DNA of 64,000 nt from Oscillatoriales cyanobacterium. Lineage in GTDB: Bacteria; Cyanobacteriota; Cyanobacteriia; Cyanobacteriales; Laspinemataceae. The DNA lies in assembly GCA_011390955.1 (NCBI GenBank), contig JAABRM010000001.1, forward strand, positions 110,694 to 174,693, read 5' to 3'. The stretch's first letter is position 1. Every line of letters starts with the position of its first letter. A program made the translations under genes and the position numbers. A model generated the notes under the pieces. That model ran no database searches, was not told the DNA's origin, and saw only the letters and a program-made list of their open reading frames with translations. Positions 19,743 to 38,478 of this stretch are shown here, piece by piece.

Positions 19743-21812
19743 TTAATTCTCATTGTTTAAAATATCTTCTAATCTTTGGCCGGGGGGAAGACCGACAAAC
19801 ACGCGATCGCCTGACTCCAAACCACTGAGAATTTGAATATCATTACCAATGGTTGGGCCAATAGTGACAGGACGAAAAACCGCTTGATTTTTCTCATTAG
19901 GAACTAACACCCCCGTTTCACCTTTATTAGTGACAATTGCCACCGTAGGCACGACTAAAGCATTTTTCAATTCATCACCTAAAAACGTCACATCCACATT
20001 CATTCCCGATCGCAATTCCTCCAAACCTGAGTCAATATCAACCCGAACTTCAAATAAAGTCACATCTTGTTCTTTAATTGCTTCGGGAGCAATCAAACGC
20101 ACTTTACCTGTAAAAACTTGGTCAGGATAAGCATCCGCCACAATTTCTACCACTTGACCGGGCTGAATTTGCGTAATATCCGCTTCCGGGACTTTCCCCA
20201 AAACTTCCAATCCTCTAGCCAAAGCCACAATAGAAGTAGAAGTAGCTTGACCCGCACTAGAAGCGGAAGTCGTCGGCGTCACAAACGCGCCCTCGGTGGC
20301 ATATCTTTGAGTAATTTGCCCAGAAAACGGCGCCCGAATAATCGTATCTTCTAGCTGAACCTCCACCTCGCGCAATTGTCCCAGGGCCTCATTCACCTCC
20401 GCTTCTGCTTGAGTAATGGTTTCGGGACGCGGGCCATTTTCTTGCAAAGCCAAAGCCTGTTCAACCTCTTGCACTTGGGCTTCGGCCCTGGCAATTTCCT
20501 CTGGACGCGGGCCATTTTCTTGCAAAGCTAAAGCCTGTTGCGCCTCTTGCACTTGGGCTTCGGCCCTGGCAATTTCCTCTGGACGCGGGCCATTTTCTTG
20601 CAAAGCTAAAGCCTGTTGCGCCTCTTGCACTTGGGCTTCGGCCCTGGCAATTTCCTCTGGACGCGGGCCATTTTCTTGCAAAGCTAAAGCCTGTTGCGCC
20701 TCTTGCACTTGGGCTTCGGCCCTGGCAATTTCCTCTGGACGCGGGCCATTTTCTTGCAAAGCTAAAGCCTGTTGCGCCTCTTGCACTTCCGCTTCCGCTT
20801 GTGTCAGGTCCTCCCGCCGATTTTTTTGCAGTTGTTCTAACTGGCGTTGCGCTTCTTGTAAACTGGCTTGGGCCCGCCGATTTTCCGTCACCGCTTCGTC
20901 CAGGCTATCTTGAGAAATAGCTCCTTCGTCGGCTAATTGCTGATTTCGTTTTCGCCGCACTTCCGTCAATTCCACTCTAGCCTGGGCGTCCACCACCCTT
21001 GCTTCCGCTTGGGCAATTTCCTCAAATCGACTACCGACTTTTACCCCTGTCAGACGGGCTTGGGCTTGGGCTAAACGGGCTCTGGCTTGGGCAATATTTT
21101 CCCTGCGGTTCCCGGCCCGCAATTCGGCTAAACTCGCTTGGGCTTGGGCTAAACGGGCTCTGGCTTGGGCAATGTCTTCTCGGCGCGAACCAGCCCGCAG
21201 TTCCCCTAAACTTTCTTGGGCTTGGGCTAAACGGGCTCTGGCTTGGGCAATGTCTTCCCCACGAGAACCTGCCAGCAGTTCGGCTAAACTCGCTTGGGCT
21301 TGGGCTAAACGAGCTCTGGCTTGGGCAATGTCTTCCCGACGGTTCCCGTTTTCCAGTTCTCGGAGTCGGGCTTCGGCGCGGTTGATTCGAGCTCTAGCTT
21401 GGGCCAGTCGGGCATTCGTATCACTACTTTCCATGATGGCGATAATTTCACCCTGTTCGACGCGATCGCCCTGTTCCACTCGTAACTGTTCAAGGCGTCC
21501 GGCATTTTTGGGGGATAAGTTGACACTTTGGATCGGTTGCACCGTGCCACTGGCTTGAATTCTGACCGTGCGATTTTGGTATTCTACGGCGACCGTGAGT
21601 TCGGCGATCGGATCGGTTTTGGGTTTGCGGCGACCCATGATTCCATATCCAATCGCGCCAAAACCTAACAAAATCACCACTACTAAAGCGATCGCTCCCA
21701 ATTTTTTCATCCCCTGAAATTTTTTAATCTGAGCGGGAAAAGATGCTTTTGGTTCAGGGAAATCAACCTTATTTTCTAACTGAGATTCTTTTTCCGGGGG
21801 AAGTTGCGGCAT
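19743..21812 (-). CDS. devB: HlyD-family membrane fusion protein (DevB-like) with expanded tandem coiled-coil repeats
   Basis: TM anchor (LGAIALVVVILLGFGAIGYGI), a biotinyl/lipoyl-like domain (VRIQASGTVQPIQSVNLSPKNAGRLEQLRVEQGDRVEQGEIIAI) and a C-terminal beta-barrel (PTVAIVTNKGETGVLV). The central part holds ~5 copies of a 22-aa unit (..REDIAQARARLAQAQASLAEL..) and 5 near-identical copies of a 26-aa unit (QENGPRPEEIARAEAQVQEAQQALAL). Confidence 0.8.
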   Translation of the reverse strand: MPQLPPEKESQLENKVDFPEPKASFPAQIKKFQGMKKLGAIALVVVILLGFGAIGYGIMGRRKPKTDPIAELTVAVEYQNRTVRIQASGTVQPIQSVNLSPKNAGRLEQLRVEQGDRVEQGEIIAIMESSDTNARLAQARARINRAEARLRELENGNRREDIAQARARLAQAQASLAELLAGSRGEDIAQARARLAQAQESLGELRAGSRREDIAQARARLAQAQASLAELRAGNRRENIAQARARLAQAQARLTGVKVGSRFEEIAQAEARVVDAQARVELTEVRRKRNQQLADEGAISQDSLDEAVTENRRAQASLQEAQRQLEQLQKNRREDLTQAEAEVQEAQQALALQENGPRPEEIARAEAQVQEAQQALALQENGPRPEEIARAEAQVQEAQQALALQENGPRPEEIARAEAQVQEAQQALALQENGPRPEEIARAEAQVQEVEQALALQENGPRPETITQAEAEVNEALGQLREVEVQLEDTIIRAPFSGQITQRYATEGAFVTPTTSASSAGQATSTSIVALARGLEVLGKVPEADITQIQPGQVVEIVADAYPDQVFTGKVRLIAPEAIKEQDVTLFEVRVDIDSGLEELRSGMNVDVTFLGDELKNALVVPTVAIVTNKGETGVLVPNEKNQAVFRPVTIGPTIGNDIQILSGLESGDRVFVGLPPGQRLEDILNNEN

Positions 21813-25126: not shown

Positions 25127-25639
25127 AGGTGATAGCTGATTGAATGATTATTTTTTGGTAAATTTACAAACATATTTGGCGAGTTTTCTTGACTAAACAA
25201 GTAACTAATATTGATTTTTTCTCCTAATTTAATCGCAATTTGTTGGTAATTATCGAATATAAATCGAGTATGAGTATCATTACTTAGCTTTATCATTTCA
25301 CAATCCCCGGTTAATTCAGGGATTTTATCAGCATATTGCGGCAAAATCAAGGGTGACTTTCGGGTAGAGAAATATTCAGAAAATTCACTGATTTACTGAA
25401 ACAATTTTGAACTGCAATGTTCGTAAAAATACTGAGATGGTAAAGTATTTGGTTTTCTTGGTTAATGGTTGAATTACTTTGGCAGCATCGATTTTGAGAT
25501 TTTGAGTAGGCTGGAATATTTTTGCGATAAATATGTTGGCACTATGTAGTTTTACGGATGATACTGTTGGCTAATTTTTCCGGTCTCTATGTTATATCGT
25601 TTACAAAAATTCATACAAAAGTAGGGGCGCAATGCTTGC

Positions 25640-25850
25640 GCCCAAATAAACCTGGGAAAGGAGAGAGGGGAGAGAAGGGAGGAGAGAGAAGGGAGGGGAG
25701 AGGAAAGAGGAGAGAGGAGGGAGAAGGGAGAAAAGAGAATATCTTTACTCTTTCCTCTTTACTCTTTCCTCTTTACTCTTTCCTCTTTACTCTTTCCTCT
25801 TTGCTCTTTGCTCTTTGCTCTTTGCTCTTTCCTCTTTTTTCCTTGAGCAG
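25640..25850. repeat. Polypurine tract (GGAGAGA/GGGAGG)n followed by a polypyrimidine tandem repeat (CTCTTTACTCTTTC/CTCTTTG)n. A mirror/inverted-repeat, H-DNA- or hairpin-prone region.
   Basis: ggagagaggggagagaagggaggagagagaagggaggggagaggaaagagg... then ctttactctttcctctttactctttcctctttactc...ctctttgctctttgctctttgctc. A similar architecture occurs at 56640-56740. Confidence 0.8.
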
Positions 25851-27938
25851 TTAACTTTCAATCACCGAATGATATCGGGTTTGACTTGCTTGCAATTGGT
25901 CTAATAGTTGCTCCTCAGTTTTCGCCGGTTCTTCGCAAGTAAAACCTTGGCAGACTAAGCCCACGGATCCGGCTGGGATATCCGAATCTATTTTATAGAT
26001 GGCTGTGGGGAAATACTGCTGATTTAACATGGCAAATACGGGGGCACTGCTGCGGACTAAAGTGTGATTTTTAAACCAATCTAAGGCCACAAAAAGACTG
26101 GGACAAGCGGAGGCAGCCCGATCCATGACGCTGCTAAATGCTTGTAAGATTTGTTCGGCGCGATCGAGATAGTTTAAGTCTTCAGTCACGAAAGCCAGCC
26201 GGACTAAATTCGCAGCGGCGATGCCATTAGCGGCAGGAGTGGCATTATCCATATAACTCCGTTCCCGAATAAGCAAATCATCGCTGCTATCGGTGGCGGT
26301 ATTATAATAACCTCCAATTTCAATACTCCAGAGAAATTCATCAAATTCTGCCTGGACTTTTACGGCTGTTTCTAACCAAAAATCCGCCGCAACCGGGGCA
26401 GACGCAAAAGCTAAACTAACTTGATGTAAATCGATTAAAGCTTTAATAAATAAAGCATAATCTTCCGATTGGGCTAATACCGCAGTTTTGCCCTCATAGT
26501 TGAGGCGATGAAACCGCCCCTCTATCCATTGGCGATCGCAGATAAAATTCGCGGCATTAGTAGCTAGTTCTAAAAATTCTGGTTCATCAAACACCGCTGC
26601 GGCTTTAGCCAACCCAGAAATCATTAAACTATTCCAAGCCACAATCATTTTCGGGTCTGTCACCGAAGGAATTCGTCCCGGCCAAGGATAAGCTTTCGCT
26701 TCCTGGTTATCCCGGGCGGGGGGAAAATTTTTCAACTCCTGGGGCAGCAATCCATAACGCAGTTGAAAGAGTTTTGCTAATGCCGCTTCCAGGGTATGAC
26801 TCAGTTCGCCCAACTGCCGACGTTGCAACACATTTTGCCCTTCAAAATTGCCATTGGCAGTAACAGTAAATTGCTCTTTTAATTCCGCCAATTCTTCAGG
26901 GGTTAAAAGTGCTTCTAATTCTGAATAAAGCCACACATAAAACGCCCCTTCTTCTGGTTCTGCTGCCGTGGGAGTGGTAAAACTATCCGCATCTTGGGCC
27001 GCATAAAAATATCCTTCTGGGGCGGTCATTTCTCGTTTCAACCATGCCACCGTCCCGAAAACTGCCCGTTTAAAAGCCGGTTCGCGAACCCCAGAACTCC
27101 ATAAATTTGCCAAATATTCGACAATTTGCCCATTGTCATAGAGCATTTTCTCAAAGTGAGGGACAGTCCAATTGGGGTCAACGGTATAACGGTGAAATCC
27201 TCCGGCTACATGATCGTAAATGCCTCCCAAGGCTAAATCATAACCCCGTTGAATACTCACTTCTTGGGGGTTATATTTCGCTTCCAGATTAAAACGACTA
27301 CCCTGGAGAACCAGTTGACTATAGGGAATCATGGGGAAACTTTGCCGACCGTGGCGATCGCCAATAATCGCCGTACTCACCTGCACGCCACTGCTGAGAC
27401 AATCATCAGCAATGGTTTCCGTTCCTGAAATTACCGCTGACTGTTGCAAATGCTGCATAATTTCCTGAGTCACATCTTGCAGCTTGGCTTTGTCCGTATC
27501 GTAATAGCGGCGAATGGCTTGGAGAATTTGCAAAAATCCCGGACGACCATATTTCGGTTCCACCGAGAAATAAGTGCCGCCAAAAAAAGGAATCAGGCGA
27601 TCGGGGGTTAAGAAAATATTTAACGGCCAACCTCCTTGACCCGTCATAATTTGCAGCGCTTGCATATAAATGCTATCAATATCTGGCCGTTCTTCTCGGT
27701 CTACTTTAATCGGCAAAAAATTGGCATTCATATAATCAGCAATCAGTTGATTTGAGAAAGCCTCCCCTTCCATGACCGTACACCAATGGCAACTGGAATA
27801 GCCGATCGACAAGAAAATTGGCTTATTCTCCCGGCGAGCAGTTTCCAGGGCTTCTGGACACCAAGGCCACCAATCAATCGGATTTTCCGCGTGTTTGCGT
27901 AGGTAGAGGCTTTCGGTTTGGGCTAGATGATTGGTCAT
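25851..27938 (-). CDS. Thioredoxin-domain protein (DUF255 / YyaL / spermatogenesis-associated protein 20-like)
   Basis: N-terminal YLRKHAENPIDWWPWCPEALETARRENKPIFLSIGYSSCHWCTVMEGEAF (thioredoxin-like CxxC) followed by a six-hairpin glycosidase-like domain. Confidence 0.85.
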   Translation of the reverse strand: MTNHLAQTESLYLRKHAENPIDWWPWCPEALETARRENKPIFLSIGYSSCHWCTVMEGEAFSNQLIADYMNANFLPIKVDREERPDIDSIYMQALQIMTGQGGWPLNIFLTPDRLIPFFGGTYFSVEPKYGRPGFLQILQAIRRYYDTDKAKLQDVTQEIMQHLQQSAVISGTETIADDCLSSGVQVSTAIIGDRHGRQSFPMIPYSQLVLQGSRFNLEAKYNPQEVSIQRGYDLALGGIYDHVAGGFHRYTVDPNWTVPHFEKMLYDNGQIVEYLANLWSSGVREPAFKRAVFGTVAWLKREMTAPEGYFYAAQDADSFTTPTAAEPEEGAFYVWLYSELEALLTPEELAELKEQFTVTANGNFEGQNVLQRRQLGELSHTLEAALAKLFQLRYGLLPQELKNFPPARDNQEAKAYPWPGRIPSVTDPKMIVAWNSLMISGLAKAAAVFDEPEFLELATNAANFICDRQWIEGRFHRLNYEGKTAVLAQSEDYALFIKALIDLHQVSLAFASAPVAADFWLETAVKVQAEFDEFLWSIEIGGYYNTATDSSDDLLIRERSYMDNATPAANGIAAANLVRLAFVTEDLNYLDRAEQILQAFSSVMDRAASACPSLFVALDWFKNHTLVRSSAPVFAMLNQQYFPTAIYKIDSDIPAGSVGLVCQGFTCEEPAKTEEQLLDQLQASQTRYHSVIES

Positions 27939-28152
27939 AAGTCGTTAGTTAAACTCGATTTGACTACGGTTTTCTGGTAGCAGTGTAACCCGAACTGGCA
28001 AGGTAGGGGGCGAATTGTCGGGAAGTGAGAGGCAGGGGTGTGGAGGTGTGGGGGGCAGTGGTCGCCATCGGGTGTGGGGGGCTATATTTAGGTTATTTCA
28101 GTGCTATTATTTTAGATAATTATCCTAATTTTTTTCATTTTATAGTCAAAAC

Positions 28153-30261
28153 GTGAAACAACATAGTCCAGTAAAAATTCAAGTCATTGATGAAAACTCT
28201 CCCTATTTAGAAACTGTGATTGCTCTAGGGGATGCGAATAAAGCTACTTTGGGATTTTTCAAAAGAAAAGCTTTTATACAATCCGCAGCAAAGCGTCAGA
28301 TTATTGTTGCTCTAGATTCCCACAAAAACTGTATTGGCTATCTACTCTATTACACTCGTTCTCGCGATCGTTATATTAAGATTGTTCATCTTTGCTTGGC
28401 TCCATCCTGTCGAGGCCAAGGAATTGCCAAGCAACTTGTTGACTATCTGAAAAAAAATACTCAAGCCTATAATGGAATAACTTTAACTTGTAGAGATGAT
28501 TATAAGTTACAGGATATGTGGGTAAAATTTGGGTTTTTCCCTGCGTATTCTAAATTAGCAAAAACCACAGGACAATATAATACAATCTGGCGCTTATTAG
28601 ATTACGGCCAAACTAATTTGTTGTTTGATTTAGCCAATCAGCATAGAGAAAATAAATTATCTGTGGCTATTGATTATTCTATATTTGTAAGTATCACTAA
28701 AAATGACCCTGATGAAGAGGCAAACTCTTTATTGGCTGACTGGCTTCAATCTGAGGTAGAATTGTGTGTTACTGAAGAAATTTTAACCGAAATTCATCAA
28801 ATCGATAATCTCAAACAACGAAATCGTCAGCAACAATTATTTGATAATTTTACTTGCCTGCCTTGTCCCCATGATAAATTCGAGGAATATTTTCAAAATC
28901 TGAATGTATTTTGCCAAAAAAATAAAATAAATATTAATCAATCATCGGTGCGTAATATTGCGAGAGCGATCGCTGCCAAAATTTATATTATAGTAACAAA
29001 ACATCAACCATTAATTCATAATGCAGAACTGCTATATGAAGCATCAAAAGTGTCAATTTTATCTCCCGATGATTTGATTATTAGGTTAGATAGTCTCAAC
29101 CAAAAACCTGACTATCAGCCTGTCCGATTAGCGGGAACTCAGCTAGAAGAAACAATTATACAAAAAGGTGAAGAATCTAACCTAATTGATGCTTTCTATT
29201 TATCAGGTAAAGAAAATAAAGCCGAATTTTCGCAGCGCTTACGCCGATTTATTGCAGAAAAAGATAAATTTACTCATGTTTTAGTGAGAAATGCAGAAAA
29301 AGAGCCTCTTGCTTTGGTTGTGTATGACAAACATAAACCCCATGAGTTAGAAATTCCCATGATTCGAGTCGGGGATCATTCCCTCTCGACAACCTTGGCA
29401 CGTAATTTAATTTTTCGCTCTATATCAAAAGCTGCATTTGACAATCGTCAATTTACCAGAATCACCGATCCACAATTAGATGATTCAATTATCAATGCTA
29501 TTCAAGAAGATATGTTCATTACTGTTCAAGATGGATATTTAAAAATGAATCTTGCTCAGGCTGAACCTGCATCTATCCTTTCAAGAAAAGTAATCAGCCT
29601 AGTAGATCGGTATATAGAAACTAATAATGGTTATAATTATTTCAAAAAATGTTCTGAAGATATCAATTCTTTAGATTTAAATGAGTACAAAAATTTATTC
29701 GTCATTGAAAAAGCGCTTTGGCCAGCAAAGATTATTGATGCTCAGATTCCTACATTTATTATTCCTATTCAGCCAAGATGGGCTCAAGAATTATTCGATT
29801 ATCATTTATCACAACAGTGTTTATTACACAATATCACTGATTTAGCTCTGAACAGAGAAGCCGTGTATTATAAATCCAAACAAGGTACTACAAAATTAAA
29901 ACCGGGAATTGTTGGTAGAATTTTATGGTATGTCAGTGCTGATAAAGATCGGGGTTTTATCGGAATTAAGGCAGTTCGAGCTTGTTCTATTCTGGATGAG
30001 GTGGTCATTGGCACCCCTGAAGAGTTAGATTTACGTTTCCGAAATTTAGGAGTTTACAAAAAAGAAGATTTACTTAAAATTGCTAAAAATGACGAAAAAC
30101 GAGATATAATGGCTTTAAGATTTAGCAACACAGAACTGTTTTATCATCCAATTAACTTGACAGATATTCGGGAAATCCTGAATAATAAAACAACAATACA
30201 AAGTTCTATTGAGATTACCGATCGACAATTTGAGCAAATTTACAAGATGGGTTACGTTTAA
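28153..30261 (+). CDS. Multidomain protein: N-terminal GNAT N-acetyltransferase fused to a PIN-like region and uncharacterised C-terminal domains (first gene of the McrBC-linked operon)
   Basis: GNAT motif A HLCLAPSCRGQGIAKQLVDYLKK (res ~80-105). Residues ~165-300 (LSVAIDYSIFVSITKNDPDEEANSLLADWLQSEVELCVTEEILTEI) follow the PIN-domain pattern. The remaining ~400 aa are uncharacterised. The stop is 3 bp from the next start. Confidence 0.65.
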   Translation: MKQHSPVKIQVIDENSPYLETVIALGDANKATLGFFKRKAFIQSAAKRQIIVALDSHKNCIGYLLYYTRSRDRYIKIVHLCLAPSCRGQGIAKQLVDYLKKNTQAYNGITLTCRDDYKLQDMWVKFGFFPAYSKLAKTTGQYNTIWRLLDYGQTNLLFDLANQHRENKLSVAIDYSIFVSITKNDPDEEANSLLADWLQSEVELCVTEEILTEIHQIDNLKQRNRQQQLFDNFTCLPCPHDKFEEYFQNLNVFCQKNKININQSSVRNIARAIAAKIYIIVTKHQPLIHNAELLYEASKVSILSPDDLIIRLDSLNQKPDYQPVRLAGTQLEETIIQKGEESNLIDAFYLSGKENKAEFSQRLRRFIAEKDKFTHVLVRNAEKEPLALVVYDKHKPHELEIPMIRVGDHSLSTTLARNLIFRSISKAAFDNRQFTRITDPQLDDSIINAIQEDMFITVQDGYLKMNLAQAEPASILSRKVISLVDRYIETNNGYNYFKKCSEDINSLDLNEYKNLFVIEKALWPAKIIDAQIPTFIIPIQPRWAQELFDYHLSQQCLLHNITDLALNREAVYYKSKQGTTKLKPGIVGRILWYVSADKDRGFIGIKAVRACSILDEVVIGTPEELDLRFRNLGVYKKEDLLKIAKNDEKRDIMALRFSNTELFYHPINLTDIREILNNKTTIQSSIEITDRQFEQIYKMGYV

Positions 30262-30264
30262 GTT

Positions 30265-30708
30265 ATGTCAGAAAGCCAAGACAATATTTTGTTACTCTCT
30301 ATCAAACCAGAATATGTCGTTAAGTTGTTTGACGGAACCAAAAAAGTAGAGTTAAGAAAAATTAAACCAAAGTTAATACCAGGAGATAGGGTGGTGGTTT
30401 ATGCTTGTTCCCCAGTGAAAGCGATCGTCGGTGTATTTGAAGTAGAAAAAGTGCTTGAAGATAGTCCAAGCAGCCTTTGGGATCGGGTGAAAGAAATTGC
30501 TGGTATCAGTAAACCAGATTTTGATGATTATTATTATACTTCCAGAAAAGCGTATGCAATTTTTTTAAAAAAAACCGAACAATATGAGCCTCCATTAGAT
30601 TTAGAAGCTATCAAGCAGCAATGGTTTAACTTTCATCCACCGCAAAGTTACAAATACTTAACAAATTCTGAGTTTAAAGAAATTCAAAATATGATCACAA
30701 TAGCTTAA
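30265..30708 (+). CDS. ASCH-domain (PUA-like fold) protein
   Basis: LLSIKPEYVVKLFDGTKKVELRKIKPKLIPGDRVVVYACSPVKAIVGVFEVEKV matches the ASCH beta-barrel consensus (sIkp..a..I..G.K..ElR.......pGd.i.iy.....ivg...v). 147 aa. Confidence 0.6.
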   Translation: MSESQDNILLLSIKPEYVVKLFDGTKKVELRKIKPKLIPGDRVVVYACSPVKAIVGVFEVEKVLEDSPSSLWDRVKEIAGISKPDFDDYYYTSRKAYAIFLKKTEQYEPPLDLEAIKQQWFNFHPPQSYKYLTNSEFKEIQNMITIA

Positions 30709-30722
30709 TTTATCGAAAAAAT

Positions 30723-32342
30723 ATGGGTGGTATAGAAAATATAGAGACACTCAATCAAAACACTTTAATATCGTTGTTTCAAGAATTTTTGAAGGATCCT
30801 TACATACAGGGAGGTCTAACTAAAATATCTGACTATAAGGAACAGCGTCAACAGGGACGACGTAACTTTGAAGCGATCGCCTCATTGGTTCAGTATGGAC
30901 AAATTCCTACGGAACTGATTCTACTACAATTACTGCCTTATGAAAATTCTCCTAGTAATTCTTATCAAAGAGCATGGATCCATAGTAATCCAGGCATCAC
31001 TGGAACCTTAGAAGAATGGTTAAAACAGCAACAATGGAATGAAAAACAAACCGCAAAAATAGCTCGGGCAATTTTTCGGTTGGTTAACCGCTGTAACGAC
31101 GATCCAAGTCAGTTGTCAGTTGCTTGCAATGAGTTTTGGCAAATTCCTTATGCTCAAAATATCAGTACAGAGTTAATCTCGCCGATTCTTCATGCACTGA
31201 AACCTGACAAATTTATGATGATTCATCAGAAATCACTACAGATTATTAATGGTTTTTATCAAAAGTATTATACTGAACAATTAAAAGATTATCCAGAAAC
31301 GAATCACTTAGGGAATCAGTTAATTAAGGAATTGGCAAATTATAAACAACAGGTCTTTGGTCTGCCAGCAATTCCAGATTATGACTTTTTTGATTTATTT
31401 TGTCACTGGGTTTTCAGGGGTAATCATCAAAAATTTTTTAATAAACAAGAGACTTTACCTAAATTGAATAAAGAGAATTTTGTGAATAGTCACACGAATC
31501 AAAACTTGAAATATTCTTTATTACAATGTGCTGAAGAAACCGGATTTGAGGAATCAGAACTCAAAAGATGGGTACGCGCTATCCACCGTAAAGGACAAGC
31601 TATTTTACAAGGCCCTCCCGGAACAGGTAAAACTTATCTGGCGGAAAAAATTGCTCAACATTTAATTGGTGGTGGCGATGGTTTCTGTGAACTGGTGCAA
31701 TTTCATCCCGCGTATGCTTATGAAGATTTTATTCAGGGAATTCGTCCTAAAACTGATGATCGAGGACAACTAACTTATCCAGTGGTTCCTGGTCGATTTT
31801 TGGAGTTTTGCCAAAAATCTCAGGAATGTAAAGATACTTGTGTTCTGATTATTGATGAAATTAACCGAGCCAATTTATCGAGTATCTTTGGGGAGTTAAT
31901 GTATTTACTGGAATATCGAGACAAAGATATTTATTTGTCTGGAAGTGCTGAAAAGTTTAAAATTCCTAAAAATCTCAGATTAATCGGGACGATGAACACC
32001 GCCGATCGCTCCATTGCTTTAGTCGATTATGCGCTACGCCGACGTTTTGCTTTTATCGAAATATCTCCGAACTATCAGGCATTACAAACATATCACAAAC
32101 GAGCGAATACTGATTTTCCGGTGGAAAATTTGATCAAAATTTTGCAAAAGCTTAATCAACAAATTAACGATCGGCATTATGCGATCGGCAATTCTTTTTT
32201 TATGGTGGAAAATTTACAAGATGAACTCCCTGATATTTGGCAAATGGAAATTGAACCTTATTTGGAGGAGTATTTTTTTAACCAGTTGGGAAAAGTCGAT
32301 GAGTTTCGTTGGCAAAAAATTAATCAACATTTTTTAGTATGA
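30723..32342 (+). CDS. mcrB: McrB-family GTPase (AAA+ McrB-type NTPase) with an uncharacterised ~290-aa N-terminal domain
   Basis: GPPGTGKTYLAEKIA (Walker A), FHPAYAYEDFIQGIRP, VLIIDEINRANLSSIFGELMYLLEYRD, RLIGTMNTADRSIALVDYALRRRFAFIEI. These are canonical McrB GTPase motifs, including NTAD in place of NKxD. The N-terminal 290 aa have no motif I recognise. Confidence 0.9.
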   Translation: MGGIENIETLNQNTLISLFQEFLKDPYIQGGLTKISDYKEQRQQGRRNFEAIASLVQYGQIPTELILLQLLPYENSPSNSYQRAWIHSNPGITGTLEEWLKQQQWNEKQTAKIARAIFRLVNRCNDDPSQLSVACNEFWQIPYAQNISTELISPILHALKPDKFMMIHQKSLQIINGFYQKYYTEQLKDYPETNHLGNQLIKELANYKQQVFGLPAIPDYDFFDLFCHWVFRGNHQKFFNKQETLPKLNKENFVNSHTNQNLKYSLLQCAEETGFEESELKRWVRAIHRKGQAILQGPPGTGKTYLAEKIAQHLIGGGDGFCELVQFHPAYAYEDFIQGIRPKTDDRGQLTYPVVPGRFLEFCQKSQECKDTCVLIIDEINRANLSSIFGELMYLLEYRDKDIYLSGSAEKFKIPKNLRLIGTMNTADRSIALVDYALRRRFAFIEISPNYQALQTYHKRANTDFPVENLIKILQKLNQQINDRHYAIGNSFFMVENLQDELPDIWQMEIEPYLEEYFFNQLGKVDEFRWQKINQHFLV

Positions 32343-33550
32343 ATTTAGACACTATTAAAGTTATTGAAATCATCGAATATCAATCAATTTTAATTCCGCG
32401 TCAGGATATTCCCCAAGCCGCCCTGGATGAACTAAGACAAAAATACAAACCCCAACTTCAAATTGGGCTTGAAGATACAAGATATGGTGATTTCTGGAAA
32501 CTTACGGCTAAAGGATGGGTTGGTTATATTCCTTTACCGGCAAATTTGGGGATTAGACTTCAGCCTAAAGTCCCCATTCAATCTATCTTAGGAATGTTAG
32601 AATATGCCTATAATTTAAAAAGTTTTCGGTTTTTAGATGGTTTGATTGATTGTGAAACCTTAGAGGAATTTTGCGATCGCCTTGCCGCTATTCTCGCTAG
32701 TCGCATTTTATCTCGCGTTCGTCAGGGCATTTATCAGACCTATCTACCAAAGACTGGAGAATTAGGATATATTCGCGATCGCCTCGATATTCGCCACACA
32801 ATTCAACAACCTTGGACGGTCAAATTCACTTGTCATTATCAAGAATACACCGCTGATATTCCAGATAATCAGATTCTCCTTTGGACAATGCACTGTCTGA
32901 GTTTTTCTGGTCTTTGTCGCCAGTTCTCGCAACATCTCGTATCAGAAACTTATCGCGCATTAAAAGGAGTAGTAACACTGAGACATTTTAACTCTCAAGA
33001 CTGCTGCGATCGCTCATATAACCGCTTAAATCAAGATTACGAATCTTTACACGCCCTCTGTTACTTTTTTCTGGAACAGATCGCCCCCAGTCATTCCATA
33101 GGTTTTTCTAAAAATTTACCTTTTTTGGTAGATATGTCAAAACTGTATGAGCAGTTTATTTATCAATGGTTAAAAATCCACCTCCCTGGAAATTTTAGCA
33201 TTAAAGCCCAAGAACGATTACAGATTGGTAAAAAATTAAACTTTAAAATAGATTTAGTGATTTATGAAACATCTATGGAAAATCCTAGATATATCCTTGA
33301 TACTAAATACAAGAGGTCATTAAAACCATCGACAGAAGATGTCGCTCAAATTATCGCTTATGCCACTGCCAAAAATTGCCCTGAAGCAATTTTAATTTAT
33401 CCCGTTGATTTACCTGAACCCGTTGATGAATGGGTAGGCGATCGCCAAATACACCTGAGAAGTTTAACTTTTTCCACTCAGACCAACCTGGAAAAATCAG
33501 GTGACAAATTTTTAATTAAATTGTTTGATGATTATCAATATTTACCCTGA
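32339..33550 (+). CDS. mcrC: McrC-family endonuclease subunit of the McrBC system
   Basis: 4-bp overlap with mcrB (ATGA). C-terminal PD-(D/E)xK core NFKIDLVIYE...ILDTKYK (the D...E.K / DTKYK signature typical of the McrC family). Confidence 0.8.
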   Translation: MNLDTIKVIEIIEYQSILIPRQDIPQAALDELRQKYKPQLQIGLEDTRYGDFWKLTAKGWVGYIPLPANLGIRLQPKVPIQSILGMLEYAYNLKSFRFLDGLIDCETLEEFCDRLAAILASRILSRVRQGIYQTYLPKTGELGYIRDRLDIRHTIQQPWTVKFTCHYQEYTADIPDNQILLWTMHCLSFSGLCRQFSQHLVSETYRALKGVVTLRHFNSQDCCDRSYNRLNQDYESLHALCYFFLEQIAPSHSIGFSKNLPFLVDMSKLYEQFIYQWLKIHLPGNFSIKAQERLQIGKKLNFKIDLVIYETSMENPRYILDTKYKRSLKPSTEDVAQIIAYATAKNCPEAILIYPVDLPEPVDEWVGDRQIHLRSLTFSTQTNLEKSGDKFLIKLFDDYQYLP

Positions 33551-33937
33551 CTAATTAATTTATAAACCAATAAAAAATAACCATTAATATGCCAATTTCA
33601 ATATATTTTTTTTGAAAAAATAATATATTTTTATAATAAAACGGTTTTTAAATTATGCTAAGAAGCAAAAGACCAATAACCCTGGTTTTTTTATCGGTGA
33701 TGGCATCTCAGGGGAAAAGGAAATGTGCAGATATTGAATGAGATCGGAATGCGTCGATTTGGATCGATCGCCCAGAAGATCGAGTAACAAATCCACCGTT
33801 GTATCTGTCAATTTTCCTAACGTGACAGATTTAAATAATTGGTTAAATAATTGAATTGGTTAAATAATTGGCTGGAAAAATTTAATAGTCAGAGGAAATA
33901 TGAGAATAAAAAGTGCCTATTTGTAAAATTAAAACAT

Positions 33938-33965
33938 TAAGCCAGAAACATAGTTTCTGGCCTAA
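33938..33965 (-). terminator. Putative rho-independent terminator downstream of the 34003-36261 gene
   Basis: Hairpin gccagaaacatagtttctggc immediately 3' of the minus-strand stop, followed on the transcribed strand by a T-rich run (ttaatgttttaatttt). Confidence 0.35.
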
Positions 33966-34002: not shown

Positions 34003-36261
34003 TTATCGAGTCACCGGCTCAATAAATGGCTCCAAAGGTTGATTCGTTCCCTGAGAGTCTGATGGCATATTTTCCGCCGAGGGAGGTGGATTATTTTCTG
34101 GAGAATTTTGATTATTTTCTTCTGGAACTACGGTTCTAGGTGGCGGAGCAATAATCCGTTTCCAGTCTTCAACTTGACGCTGCACTACTTGATAATTAGC
34201 GGCATAAAATGGAATCGTTTGGGCAATATCAATGGCGCGAAGCAAATCGTACTGAGCCTCATCTTGGGCCATATTATAAAGTTGCGTACTCCATTCATTG
34301 ATAGAATTATCCGCTTGGGAGCGTAAAGGACTGACCATTGACACTTGATTGATAGTTTCAATGGCTTTAAGTAAGGTGGCCGGATTGGTTGTTCCATTGG
34401 CCATAGCACTGGCTTGTTGAAGACTTTCTCGATCGCGGATTTCGGTTTTCCAGGCAAAAATAGCCGATTGCGCCTCTTGATATAAGAGTCTGCCCGGACT
34501 AATTTTTTCCGCTTGAGAGATCGCCAGAAGTAAATTGCCGGCTTTGGCCAAATTCCAAGCCCGATCTAACACCGGCTGATCTTCTTGGCGCTGAATTTCG
34601 CCGCGCCATGCGTCGATTTTGTCTTGGGCTTCTTGGTAAAGTTCTCGTCCGGGACGAATTTGTTGGGCGGTATCAATGGCCGCTTGCAAGGAGAGGCGAT
34701 CGCCGTATTTGGCTAAATCTTGGGCTTGCATTAAAAACGGACGATCTTCTTGCACCTCAATCAAATTTTGCCAGCGATTGATATTATCTTGGGCTTCATC
34801 CCAATAGCTGTTACTGCGTCCGACCAATTGGGCTTGGGAAATCGCCATGCGTAAATCTTGGGCAGAACCCAGTTGTGCCTGTTGCCGCGCTTTTTCCAAA
34901 TAAGCTAAATCCTGAATATCTTGCTGCCAGGTCATAATCAGCCGCTGGGCTTCGGCATACATAGGCCGACCGGCTCCAATTTGTTGGGCTTTAGTAATTG
35001 CCTCTTGAATCGAGCTTAAGCTGCCTCGGTCAGCCAGAGATTTTGCCCTGGTCAAATCCACAAAATCCACCGCCTCATTTTTCAGAGGACTATCAGCGGG
35101 AATTTGCCGCGCAATATAGATCGCATCTTGCCAATCTTGGCGCTCCAGACTGGCTTTGGCCATTTCCATCATTTGTTCGGCAAACTTCATTTTCAACGAA
35201 CGCGCCGCTTTATAAAGTTTGCTTTTCTCGTCAAAAGTCGAAACTATGCGTAACGCTTCTAACAGGTTTTTAATTTCGCCCGTATCTGCTAAATCTCTGG
35301 CTTTATCCAAAGTTTTTGCCGATTCTCTGGTGGCTTCAATTAAAGTAAACAGGGCATCAAATTGCTTGGTTTGCCAGTAGCGATTTTCCACAAATTGCAG
35401 CTTTTGGGCGGCAAAAAAAGCATCCCGCCACATTTCTTTTTCCATCGCCGCTTCCGCTGCTTTGTAGTAGTCTTTGGCTTCTTGCCAAATAGACTCCCAT
35501 TTTTTAATCCGTTCATCTACTAAACTAGCCGCAGAGGTATCGCGGGGAATTTGCCTAGCGGTGGAGATCGCCTCAGTAATGTCACCGGCATGAAAACTTT
35601 CTTCCGCCAGATCCAATAATTGCTCGGCCCAAGTTTCGATATTCTCGTCAATTTGTTTCCGCAGCGGATGATCTTTCGGCAAATCGTAAGCGATCGCGAT
35701 CGCCTCTAATAACCCGTTAATAGTTTTTTGATTCGCCAACTGTCCCGCACAATATAACTGCTCCGACGCGGAAGGCTTAAACCAGAAAAAATGATAATTA
35801 CAAGTCGGTGTATCGGGCAACTTGAGCAACATCATCAAAGATCCGACACCGAGACCCCCTGACACGGTTAAAGTAATCAGTCCCCAAAGTTCCCAGCGCT
35901 GCAATAACCGGATTGCCCAGTGCTTGCGATCGTGAAAAGATTTTCTATGTTGGCGATCGCGACGATCCCCAATTTGAGAATGAGAATTCCAGAGTGCAGA
36001 TTTTGGCGATCGGTCATCCTGTGGGTTGGAATTAAATTCCGATTGCAACTTCAAACTCCCATCAGTAGCGTTTGCCCCCACGGGAGAGCTAAAAGCTGAT
36101 GGCAATGGCTCCAAAGAACGGCTCAAGAACTGCTCTTTAGCGTCTGAGTCGGAACCCTGAGATGGATGCCAACGATCTGGAATTTCGCGATTTCTAGTCA
36201 TACCTACCCACAAATAGTCTTCTAGCCGTCTTGGAGTCGCTTTGAGCACAAGTGTTCTCAA
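34003..36261 (-). CDS. Membrane-anchored repeat protein (uncharacterised). Single TM, then ~8 tandem ~45-aa alpha-helical repeats, and a Pro/Asn-rich C-terminus.
   Basis: TM WELWGLITLTVSGGLGVGSLMMLLKL; repeats of the form AI..AQQI.PGR.LY.EAQ..I..W..EIQ..ED.P.L..A..LAK.G; the C-terminus PPPRTVVPEENNQNSPENNPPPSAENMPSD is low complexity. Confidence 0.6.
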   Translation of the reverse strand: MRTLVLKATPRRLEDYLWVGMTRNREIPDRWHPSQGSDSDAKEQFLSRSLEPLPSAFSSPVGANATDGSLKLQSEFNSNPQDDRSPKSALWNSHSQIGDRRDRQHRKSFHDRKHWAIRLLQRWELWGLITLTVSGGLGVGSLMMLLKLPDTPTCNYHFFWFKPSASEQLYCAGQLANQKTINGLLEAIAIAYDLPKDHPLRKQIDENIETWAEQLLDLAEESFHAGDITEAISTARQIPRDTSAASLVDERIKKWESIWQEAKDYYKAAEAAMEKEMWRDAFFAAQKLQFVENRYWQTKQFDALFTLIEATRESAKTLDKARDLADTGEIKNLLEALRIVSTFDEKSKLYKAARSLKMKFAEQMMEMAKASLERQDWQDAIYIARQIPADSPLKNEAVDFVDLTRAKSLADRGSLSSIQEAITKAQQIGAGRPMYAEAQRLIMTWQQDIQDLAYLEKARQQAQLGSAQDLRMAISQAQLVGRSNSYWDEAQDNINRWQNLIEVQEDRPFLMQAQDLAKYGDRLSLQAAIDTAQQIRPGRELYQEAQDKIDAWRGEIQRQEDQPVLDRAWNLAKAGNLLLAISQAEKISPGRLLYQEAQSAIFAWKTEIRDRESLQQASAMANGTTNPATLLKAIETINQVSMVSPLRSQADNSINEWSTQLYNMAQDEAQYDLLRAIDIAQTIPFYAANYQVVQRQVEDWKRIIAPPPRTVVPEENNQNSPENNPPPSAENMPSDSQGTNQPLEPFIEPVTR

Positions 36262-38287: not shown

Positions 38288-38478
38288 GGAGAACAATTAA
38301 CAATTGATAATTGACAATTGACAATTGACAATTATCAATTACACCCCAACCAACAACAACGAACAACCAACAACCAAAGAATCCCTACCCAACAACCAAC
38401 AATCAACAACCAACAATCAACAACCAACAATCAACAACCAACAACCAACCAACAACCAACAACCAACAAAAAATATCA
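38288..38478. repeat. Composite short-repeat tract: (AATTGAT/AATTGAC)n palindromic heptamers followed by (CAACCAA)n heptamers
   Basis: aattaacaattgataattgacaattgacaattgacaattatcaattaca then caaccaacaacaacgaacaaccaacaaccaaag...caaccaacaatcaacaaccaacaa.... Generates spurious TTNNQQP ORFs (38318..38518, 38325..38567). Confidence 0.85.

Follow-up and report, generated by a model that had tools for sequence, protein, structure and literature searches.

The 64-kb window analysed here (the whole stretch of DNA under study, positions 110,694 to 174,693 of contig JAABRM010000001.1 from an Oscillatoriales cyanobacterium) contains an operon of four co-directional and intact genes, separated by 3, 14 and -4 bp, which codes for a GNAT/PIN-type fusion protein, an ASCH protein, McrB and McrC. 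The four genes are inherited together and co-evolve across cyanobacteria, and they could form a single modification-dependent restriction system. An earlier interpretation made from the sequence alone (hereafter the sequence-only reading) had described these four open reading frames (ORFs) with the same coordinates and spacings, which were confirmed. They are not chance ORFs, because of their lengths at 35% GC, their strong family matches and the more than 100 full-length homologue clusters that were found. The genes and their domains, several of which are predicted, are the following:

28153-30261, + strand: gene 1, 702 amino acids (aa), GTG start; predicted GNAT / PIN / GNAT-fold / PUA-like (ASCH-like) fusion
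28153-28602, + strand: gene 1 residues 1-150, canonical GNAT acyl-CoA acyltransferase domain
28645-29112, + strand: gene 1 residues ~165-320, PIN-like nuclease domain
29146-29553, + strand: gene 1 residues ~332-467, second, degenerate GNAT-fold domain
29752-30261, + strand: gene 1 residues ~534-702, PUA-like (ASCH/EVE-type) domain, paralogous to gene 2
30265-30708, + strand: gene 2, 147 aa, predicted free-standing ASCH protein of the ZmASCH type, with a GKER motif
30723-32342, + strand: gene 3, 539 aa, McrB
30723-31442, + strand: gene 3 residues 1-240, all-alpha N-terminal domain with a probable Ogg/EndoIII-like (HhH-GPD) fold; putative sensor of non-canonical bases
31548-32342, + strand: gene 3 residues 276-539, McrB AAA+ GTPase
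32339-33550, + strand: gene 4, 403 aa, McrC nuclease subunit, overlapping gene 3 by 4 bp

The McrB/McrC pair and the N-terminal domain of McrB

Profile matches identify genes 3 and 4 as a genuine McrB/McrC pair, as the sequence-only reading had proposed from motifs that are all present. Gene 3 matches McrB in NCBIfam (9e-49), the E. coli McrB structure 6hz4 in PDB (1.2e-47) and AAA_5 in Pfam (3.9e-22), and its GPPGTGKT (Walker A), DEINRAN (Walker B), MNTAD and RRRF motifs fall in columns that are about 90% or more conserved among 113 orthologues; the last of them is part of a DYALRRRF sequence in which the consensus has H in place of Y. Gene 4 matches McrBC in Pfam (8.1e-39) and McrC in NCBIfam (4.2e-28), contains the LDTKYK motif, and has residues D305, D321, T322 and K323 that are invariant in 53 sequences. 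The pair therefore shares with E. coli McrBC and other Type IV systems an AAA+ GTPase with Walker A, Walker B and NxxD signature, followed by an overlapping McrC with a D...D-x-K nuclease core. It differs from the E. coli system in two respects: the N-terminal domain of McrB is not DUF3578, EVE or YTH but all-alpha, with a predicted glycosylase-like fold, and two accessory genes that co-evolve with the pair lie upstream of it. Judging from the family, McrBC would act here by cleaving DNA that contains the bases recognised by the N-terminal domain of McrB. An LlaJI-type restriction-modification system (methyltransferases plus McrBC-like R subunits) was also considered and rejected, since none of the four proteins contains a methyltransferase domain.

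The sequence-only reading had recognised no reader in the N-terminal domain of McrB; its best match, however, is an Ogg-type glycosylase fold, an assignment that is reasonably probable. Foldseek against PDB gave nothing significant, with weak matches to MutY recurring, a word-indexed search with the domain alone yielded two matches, and neither a PDB profile search nor NCBIfam returned any. When 27 sequences of the domain were submitted to hmmscan at E <=10, there was no match to any Pfam family, including the OGG-like family PF21790. The orthologues of gene 3 (P0123-P0242) are annotated with Pfam PF28529, and longer forms of the protein also with PF28530; these two families may already name the N-terminal region of McrB. 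Conserved residues of the domain are D189 (88%), D221 and D224. The family comprises 530 representatives at E <=1e-3, mostly within McrB proteins of 450-1500 aa, one of which is a McrB-McrC fusion.

Some members of this family are long-form McrBs (650-1150 aa), which carry extra domains between the putative sensor and the GTPase. In 19 of 26 of them this position is occupied by a domain of ~145 aa with the consensus 'YWKIAPGE..W..C..GFIAIGW...GD.IVAN.G...GIGTV.GPY' (residues ~240-400 of L101, L108, L109, L112 and others), which is suspected to be PUA-like; one long form has a Pfam EVE domain (1.7e-11) at the insert position, and another has Mrr_N. The N-terminal domain is also found without a GTPase, in proteins of ~472 aa (L135-L137, L139, L141-L144 and L157) that share a C-terminal motif IDVLW...FEVECTT. 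The C-terminal region of these proteins looks PD-(D/E)xK-like by eye and has no Pfam match, and they may be single-chain nucleases resembling the PD-DExK fusion mentioned below.

A sensor of this kind has a precedent in the END nucleases, where an inactivated EndoIII/hOgg1-like domain was shown experimentally to sense hypermodified phage DNA (bioRxiv 2025.03.31.646159, PMC12191111), and where the same sensor was described fused to McrB-like GTPases and to PD-DExK nucleases (PMC12191111). Both groups of proteins would have in common a glycosylase-fold sensor domain fused to nuclease effectors, and the partners are also comparable: a McrB-like GTPase and PD-DExK there, and here a McrB GTPase or a region that is PD-(D/E)xK-like by eye, without a Pfam match. 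They differ in that the effector of the END nucleases is a PLD nuclease, and McrBC in the present case. Should the N-terminal domain indeed serve as a sensor with a glycosylase-like fold, Type IV restriction would possess readers other than PUA-like and winged-helix domains, in parallel to the END nucleases.

The proteins encoded by genes 1 and 2

Gene 1 has more than 100 full-length homologue clusters (38-96% identity), which are cyanobacterial with few exceptions. As the sequence-only reading had noted, the protein opens with a GNAT domain followed by a PIN-like region, and Pfam matches in the window protein and in family members bear out both. The GNAT domain is matched by Acetyltransf_1/7/10 (residues 43-129, ~4e-8, with matches in 21 of 21 family members) and keeps an intact acetyl-CoA loop, R87-G-Q-G-I-A92 (RGQGIA), that fits the consensus RGKGVA; its best curated NCBIfam match is RimI-like (3.6e-5, far below cut-off). 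PIN_3 is weak and below cut-off in the window protein (5e-3), and eight of the 21 family members match it, the best with 7.6e-8; across 119 gene 1 sequences, the acidic positions D174, E189, D196, E208/E209 and D313 of this domain carry an acidic residue in at least 90% of cases. The remaining ~400 aa had been called unknown sequence, but they contain two further domains. One is a second GNAT fold, found by fold search alone, which probably lacks the canonical acetyl-CoA loop and has no sequence similarity to the protein's own N-terminal GNAT in hhalign. The other, at the C-terminus, is a PUA-like domain whose paralogy with gene 2 is detectable from the sequence (hhalign 97.2%, E 2.8e-11). Neither the window protein nor the family members show a Pfam EVE match, and no homologue of gene 1 was found in the phage collection.

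Gene 2 is, by its motifs and closest structural match, an ASCH protein of the GKER subgroup and the ZmASCH type. The profile searches agree with the PUA-like/ASCH assignment that had been made from sequence inspection: over its full length it matches the ZmASCH structures 5GUQ/5GUS in PDB (9e-18), while the Pfam EVE (4.8e-5) and ASCH (2.9e-4) matches are both just above cut-off, and in NCBIfam it matches an L22-fusion protein. The GxKxVELR motif, which contains the Lys/Glu/Arg of ASCH proteins, is invariant in 79 family members, as are residues K26, E29, R31, Y46 and Y89, and P125, P126 and Q127 are 99% conserved in the same 79 sequences. Y46, K52 and S128 align with Y47, K53 and S128 of ZmASCH (its nucleic-acid-binding Tyr/Lys/Ser), so that Tyr47, Lys53, Ser128, Tyr90 and the GKxxExR motif of that protein are kept in gene 2, whereas Trp15 of its base pocket is replaced by Lys. 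The sequence-only reading had drawn an analogy to E. coli YqfB, an N4-acetylcytidine (ac4C) amidohydrolase, and this was rejected: the motif is of the GKER and not the GKTR type, with Glu where GK[T/S]R has the catalytic Thr, and the protein has 147 aa instead of ~103. No YqfB structure appears among the PDB matches of gene 2 at E <=1.

ZmASCH has been described as an RNase acting on single-stranded RNA in vitro (Kim et al. 2017, PMC5615036), and in a 2026 preprint all 19 of the 19 ASCH proteins assayed, ZmASCH among them, stripped ac4C from tRNA. In TthASCH, EOLA1 and TRIP4, the three GKER-type proteins that were mutated, tRNA deacetylation requires the Lys and Glu of the motif. Free ac4C is not hydrolysed by ZmASCH.

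Genes 1 and 2 (module A) have a likeness to a described pair that the sequence-only reading had overlooked. They resemble the '(PIN)-GNAT-EVE' proteins with an adjacent ASCH gene of Bell et al. 2020 (PMC7641849, citing Iyer et al. 2013), a module known in silico only and regarded as toxin-antitoxin-like, and PADLOC lists them as candidate PDC-M11, which from its domain order would be the same module. Gene 2 is matched from end to end by the family PDC-M11B (5.5e-39), and PDC-M11A matches residues 493-700 of gene 1 in the window (3e-16). In a Prevotella homologue of gene 1, PDC-M11A spans residues 163-649, the whole PIN-GNAT-PUA part; since this match begins at residue 163, the PADLOC family represents a PIN-GNAT-PUA core to which the N-terminal GNAT has been added. 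Both modules combine PIN, GNAT-fold and PUA-like domains, in this order, in a single protein with a free-standing ASCH gene after it, and both are found in defence contexts and known in silico only. The cyanobacterial one differs in its extra canonical N-terminal GNAT, in an internal GNAT-fold domain without the usual acetyl-CoA loop, in a C-terminal domain that resembles ZmASCH and gene 2 more closely than Pfam EVE, and in being fixed in an operon with McrBC or, in another clade, with Mrr. The linkage to McrBC is mentioned neither by Bell et al. (PMC7641849) nor in the 2024 McrBC census.

Co-inheritance and possible function of the four genes

The sequence-only reading had itself raised the alternative that McrBC occurs alone with variable genes upstream, which would make genes 1 and 2 unrelated neighbours. 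Two censuses, one in each direction, did not bear this alternative out. Starting from gene 1, the best 80 of 152 genomic relatives in the genome collection (one per species) were read. Gene 2 directly follows gene 1 in 79 of these 80 loci, and 55 carry the complete set of four in order; four more loci end at a contig edge past a McrB match, and five have too little downstream sequence to decide on the presence of McrBC. Of the others, 14 lack McrBC with more than 3.5 kb of downstream sequence, one (L043) has genes 1-3 with no McrC within the 7.5 kb downstream, and in one (L060) McrC comes immediately after a truncated gene 1. The McrBC-linked and McrBC-less gene 1 proteins fall into separate clusters at ~45% identity, none of them mixed, and in the main linked cluster McrBC is present in 50 of the 50 determinable loci. 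Pairwise distances of gene 1 and McrB are correlated (Spearman 0.78) nearly as tightly as those of McrB and McrC, which are an obligate pair (0.82), and none of 500 permutations attained either value.

The reciprocal census used the McrB N-terminal domain as query against the metagenome collection. Short-form McrB, the type found in the window, has gene 2 upstream in all 21 loci with readable upstream sequence (and gene 1 too where the sequence reaches it), whereas none of 23 long-form McrBs has gene 1 or gene 2 within 7 kb. The GTPase domains of the two forms belong to one subfamily (69% against 63% identity). Within the operon, the spacing between genes 2 and 3 varies from 14 to ~270 bp and reaches 1.3-1.7 kb in two loci.

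Rearranged operons were observed in Okeania and Trichodesmium-like genomes (L037, L046 and L160), in Hormoscilla (L006, L007, L009 and L010) and in Brasilonema and Scytonema (L048 and L056); the rearrangements comprise second copies or fragments of the McrB GTPase between McrB and McrC, gaps of ~0.9-1 kb in that same place, and 1.3-1.7 kb inserted after gene 2, ahead of McrB. A complete operon is carried by a cultured strain, Calothrix sp. PCC 6303, on the mobilizable plasmid pCAL6303.01 (37113-42669), where its neighbours are a type II restriction-modification pair and a recombinase. A gene for a C5 cytosine methyltransferase and another for an Eco29kI-family endonuclease lie directly upstream of this copy (L161, 3835-5777), and the McrBC of the plasmid presumably tolerates the C5 cytosine methylation made by the neighbouring enzyme.

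Module A is also found with other partners. In six of the McrBC-less loci a convergent ORF of ~303 aa adjoins gene 2; two of the six are confirmed Mrr proteins (Pfam Mrr_N and Mrr_cat, ~1e-35), and the other four share their N-terminal sequence. In Prevotella sp. oral taxon 299 (L162, 3236-8483) a pair of gene 1 (29% identical) and gene 2 is preceded by co-directional genes for a 626-aa AAA ATPase, with weak NsnB/GajA matches, and a 290-aa protein with an HNH motif. Mobile-element-like genes lie downstream of this pair.

The best explanation of these data, which is given an even chance, is that the four genes form one integrated, four-component modification-dependent restriction system of cyanobacteria, made of two modules that evolve as a unit. 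Genes 3 and 4 (module B) would be the DNA-cutting arm, in which the Ogg/EndoIII-like domain would replace the 5-methylcytosine-binding domain of E. coli McrB and most likely flip out and recognise non-canonical (hypermodified) bases of invading DNA; the McrB GTPase hexamer would then translocate, and McrC would cleave. The target would be modified phage DNA. Module A would be an accessory sensing and effector arm, whose two paralogous PUA-like/ASCH domains are expected, from what is known of their families, to bind modified nucleic acid. The canonical GNAT of gene 1 could transfer an acyl group, possibly acetyl, the PIN domain of the same protein could cleave nucleic acid, and the free ASCH protein, with its Lys/Glu motif intact, could bind or reverse the product of the GNAT. 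Any physical or functional coupling of the modules would most likely consist in a shared substrate: module A would act on the modified nucleic acid that the short-form McrB also targets, and would either contribute a PUA-like reader in trans (some related long-form McrBs have one in cis) or condition the target. Such a system would be of interest because a widespread module (PIN-GNAT-PUA plus ASCH) known in silico only is here locked to a well-understood nuclease. McrBC provides it with a read-out, the restriction of modified DNA, and poses a genetic question, namely whether McrBC depends on genes 1 and 2; because a canonical GNAT here neighbours an ASCH protein whose deacetylase-type motif is intact, the writing and erasing of acetyl groups on nucleic acid in immunity also becomes testable.

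Several observations weigh against this integrated system. Because the short and long forms belong to one GTPase subfamily, the 21/21 and 0/23 counts are not independent and the contrast may reflect a single ancestral event; the distance correlations can come from shared vertical descent alone, and the gene 1 census covered the best 80 of the 152 genomic relatives only. Module A is autonomous elsewhere, as in the 14 loci without McrBC and in the Prevotella pair that follows an ATPase and an HNH-motif ORF, and a back-up module indifferent to its partner would yield the same pattern. Bell et al. (PMC7641849) link the (PIN)-GNAT-EVE and ASCH genes to type I restriction-modification, CRISPR and also prophage contexts. 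The commonest insert of the long forms, the 'YWKIAPGE' domain suspected to be PUA-like, has no match in Pfam, NCBIfam or the PDB profile search, nor in hhalign against gene 2, the C-terminal domain of gene 1 or the EVE insert. A pure reader role for module A would, moreover, leave the conserved GNAT loop and the acidic residues of the PIN domain unexplained.

In the main rival explanation, which is possible but less probable, two autonomous defence systems travel together. McrBC would then be a self-sufficient Type IV system and genes 1 and 2 would be toxin-antitoxin or abortive-infection-like: the GNAT and/or the PIN domain would be a toxin against the tRNA or RNA to which the PUA-like domain binds, with ASCH as antidote or eraser. 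They could be a second line of defence, or a guard triggered when a phage blocks restriction. The anticodon nuclease PrrC is embedded in a type I restriction-modification operon (EcoprrI), and it provides a conceptual precedent (an RNA-directed effector within a restriction system) for such a guard or back-up role, without homology. This explanation accounts for the range of partners (14 of the 80 loci without McrBC, Mrr as a neighbour, or an ATPase with an HNH-motif ORF in Prevotella) and for the retained GNAT and PIN chemistry. PADLOC models genes 1 and 2 as a two-gene candidate, in line with the toxin-antitoxin-like class and the links to type I restriction-modification and CRISPR given by Bell et al. 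2020 (PMC7641849), and the activities of ASCH proteins, RNase in ZmASCH (the closest characterised relative of gene 2) and ac4C removal from tRNA in 19/19 proteins of the 2026 preprint, also speak for it. The variable spacing between genes 2 and 3 counts in its favour too. Less well explained is the fixation throughout a clade, since the linked gene 1 clade, with ~50% divergence, is always accompanied by McrBC where this can be read; genes that are merely neighbours in a defence island usually become reshuffled far more quickly than this. Gene 1 and McrB covary nearly as tightly as the two McrBC subunits, and a short-form McrB without gene 2 was never seen in the 21 readable loci.

The acetylation speculated upon in the sequence-only reading can be made explicit as a system that writes, erases, reads and cuts an acyl mark: a GNAT guided by the PUA-like domain would acetylate a base of invading DNA (e.g., cytosine at N4, or the amine of a hypermodified phage base), ASCH would strip the mark from self nucleic acid, and the Ogg-like domain of McrB would read the acylated base for cleavage by McrBC. 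This would be the first restriction system founded on an acyl mark of DNA. It is improbable, and no acetylated DNA base is known as a restriction target. The canonical acetyl-CoA loop of the N-terminal GNAT agrees with it, as does the invariant Lys/Glu/Arg motif of ASCH, whose equivalent Lys and Glu are indispensable for the deacetylation of tRNA by TthASCH, EOLA1 and TRIP4, and so does the removal of ac4C from tRNA by 19/19 ASCH proteins, ZmASCH included, in the 2026 preprint. DNA-base acetylation was predicted for the (PIN)-GNAT-EVE and ASCH module by Iyer et al. 2013, as cited in Bell et al. (PMC7641849). The module is a partner of two modification-dependent nucleases, McrBC and Mrr, and the long-form McrBs that have an extra reader domain of their own are without it. 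The PIN domain would nevertheless be unaccounted for, the McrBC-less loci would require a different read-out, free ac4C is not a substrate of ZmASCH, gene 2 does not belong to the YqfB type, and no result of this analysis favours a DNA over an RNA substrate. A still more remote alternative, with a very small probability, is that genes 1 and 2 belong to RNA metabolism or housekeeping (acetylation or turnover of tRNA or rRNA) and lie beside McrBC by chance, with neither a defence function nor coupling. PUA and ASCH domains are classically tied to RNA, and the best curated matches, RimI-like for the GNAT (3.6e-5, far below cut-off) and the L22-fusion protein for gene 2, would suit such a role; against it stand the patchy distribution, the plasmid carriage, a GC content below that of the flanks in 42 of 44 genomes, the matches of PADLOC defence-candidate models to both genes and their fixed linkage to restriction nucleases.

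Composition and surroundings of the operon

The operon has a GC content of 0.352 against 0.434 in the remainder of the window; per kb, the values are 0.33-0.38 over 28-34 kb and 0.41-0.51 in the flanks. The sequence-only reading had found this low GC consistent with horizontal acquisition. The measurement stands, but it is not evidence of recent arrival: orthologous operons have a GC content below that of their own flanks in 42 of 44 genomes, and the cyanobacterial HIP1 octamer, the palindrome GCGATCGC, which occurs 68 times in the 64-kb window against 0.64 expected, is found six times in the 5.4 kb of the operon, a density equal to that of the remainder of the window. Low GC is therefore a trait of the operon family. 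The features concerned, together with the upstream gap, are the following:

28966, 30873, 32673, 32775, 33006 and 33438: GCGATCGC (HIP1) sites within the operon
27939-28152, no strand: divergent intergenic region 5' of gene 1, presumed from its position alone to contain the operon promoter

This gap is bounded by the start of a gene on the minus strand (25851-27938) and by the GTG start codon of gene 1. Scans around the operon gave no promoter match above background, and terminator scan and repeat search likewise gave nothing above background; an Rfam search had no matches. In the window, no flanking direct repeats, tRNA or integrase were found around the operon, and its neighbours are unremarkable genes that code for a thioredoxin-domain protein, a mechanosensitive channel and Hsp33. 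A strong hairpin with a 13-bp stem (33937-33965) lies between the end of the operon and a convergent gene (34003-36261); it scores as the terminator of the minus-strand gene and might serve both directions.

Intergenic tandem repeats of the cyanobacterial STRR heptamer type are present at 25654-25837 (AGGAGAG / TCTTTCC) and at 38292-38469 (AACAATT / CCAACAA), the first of which gives rise to a spurious low-complexity ORF (25558-25854). Two further arrays consist of 78-nt tandem repeats with a GC content of 0.51-0.52, one at 20425-20795 (4.8 copies, 97% matches) and the other at 21058-21404 (3.7 copies, 86%); if coding, their unit would correspond to 26 aa.

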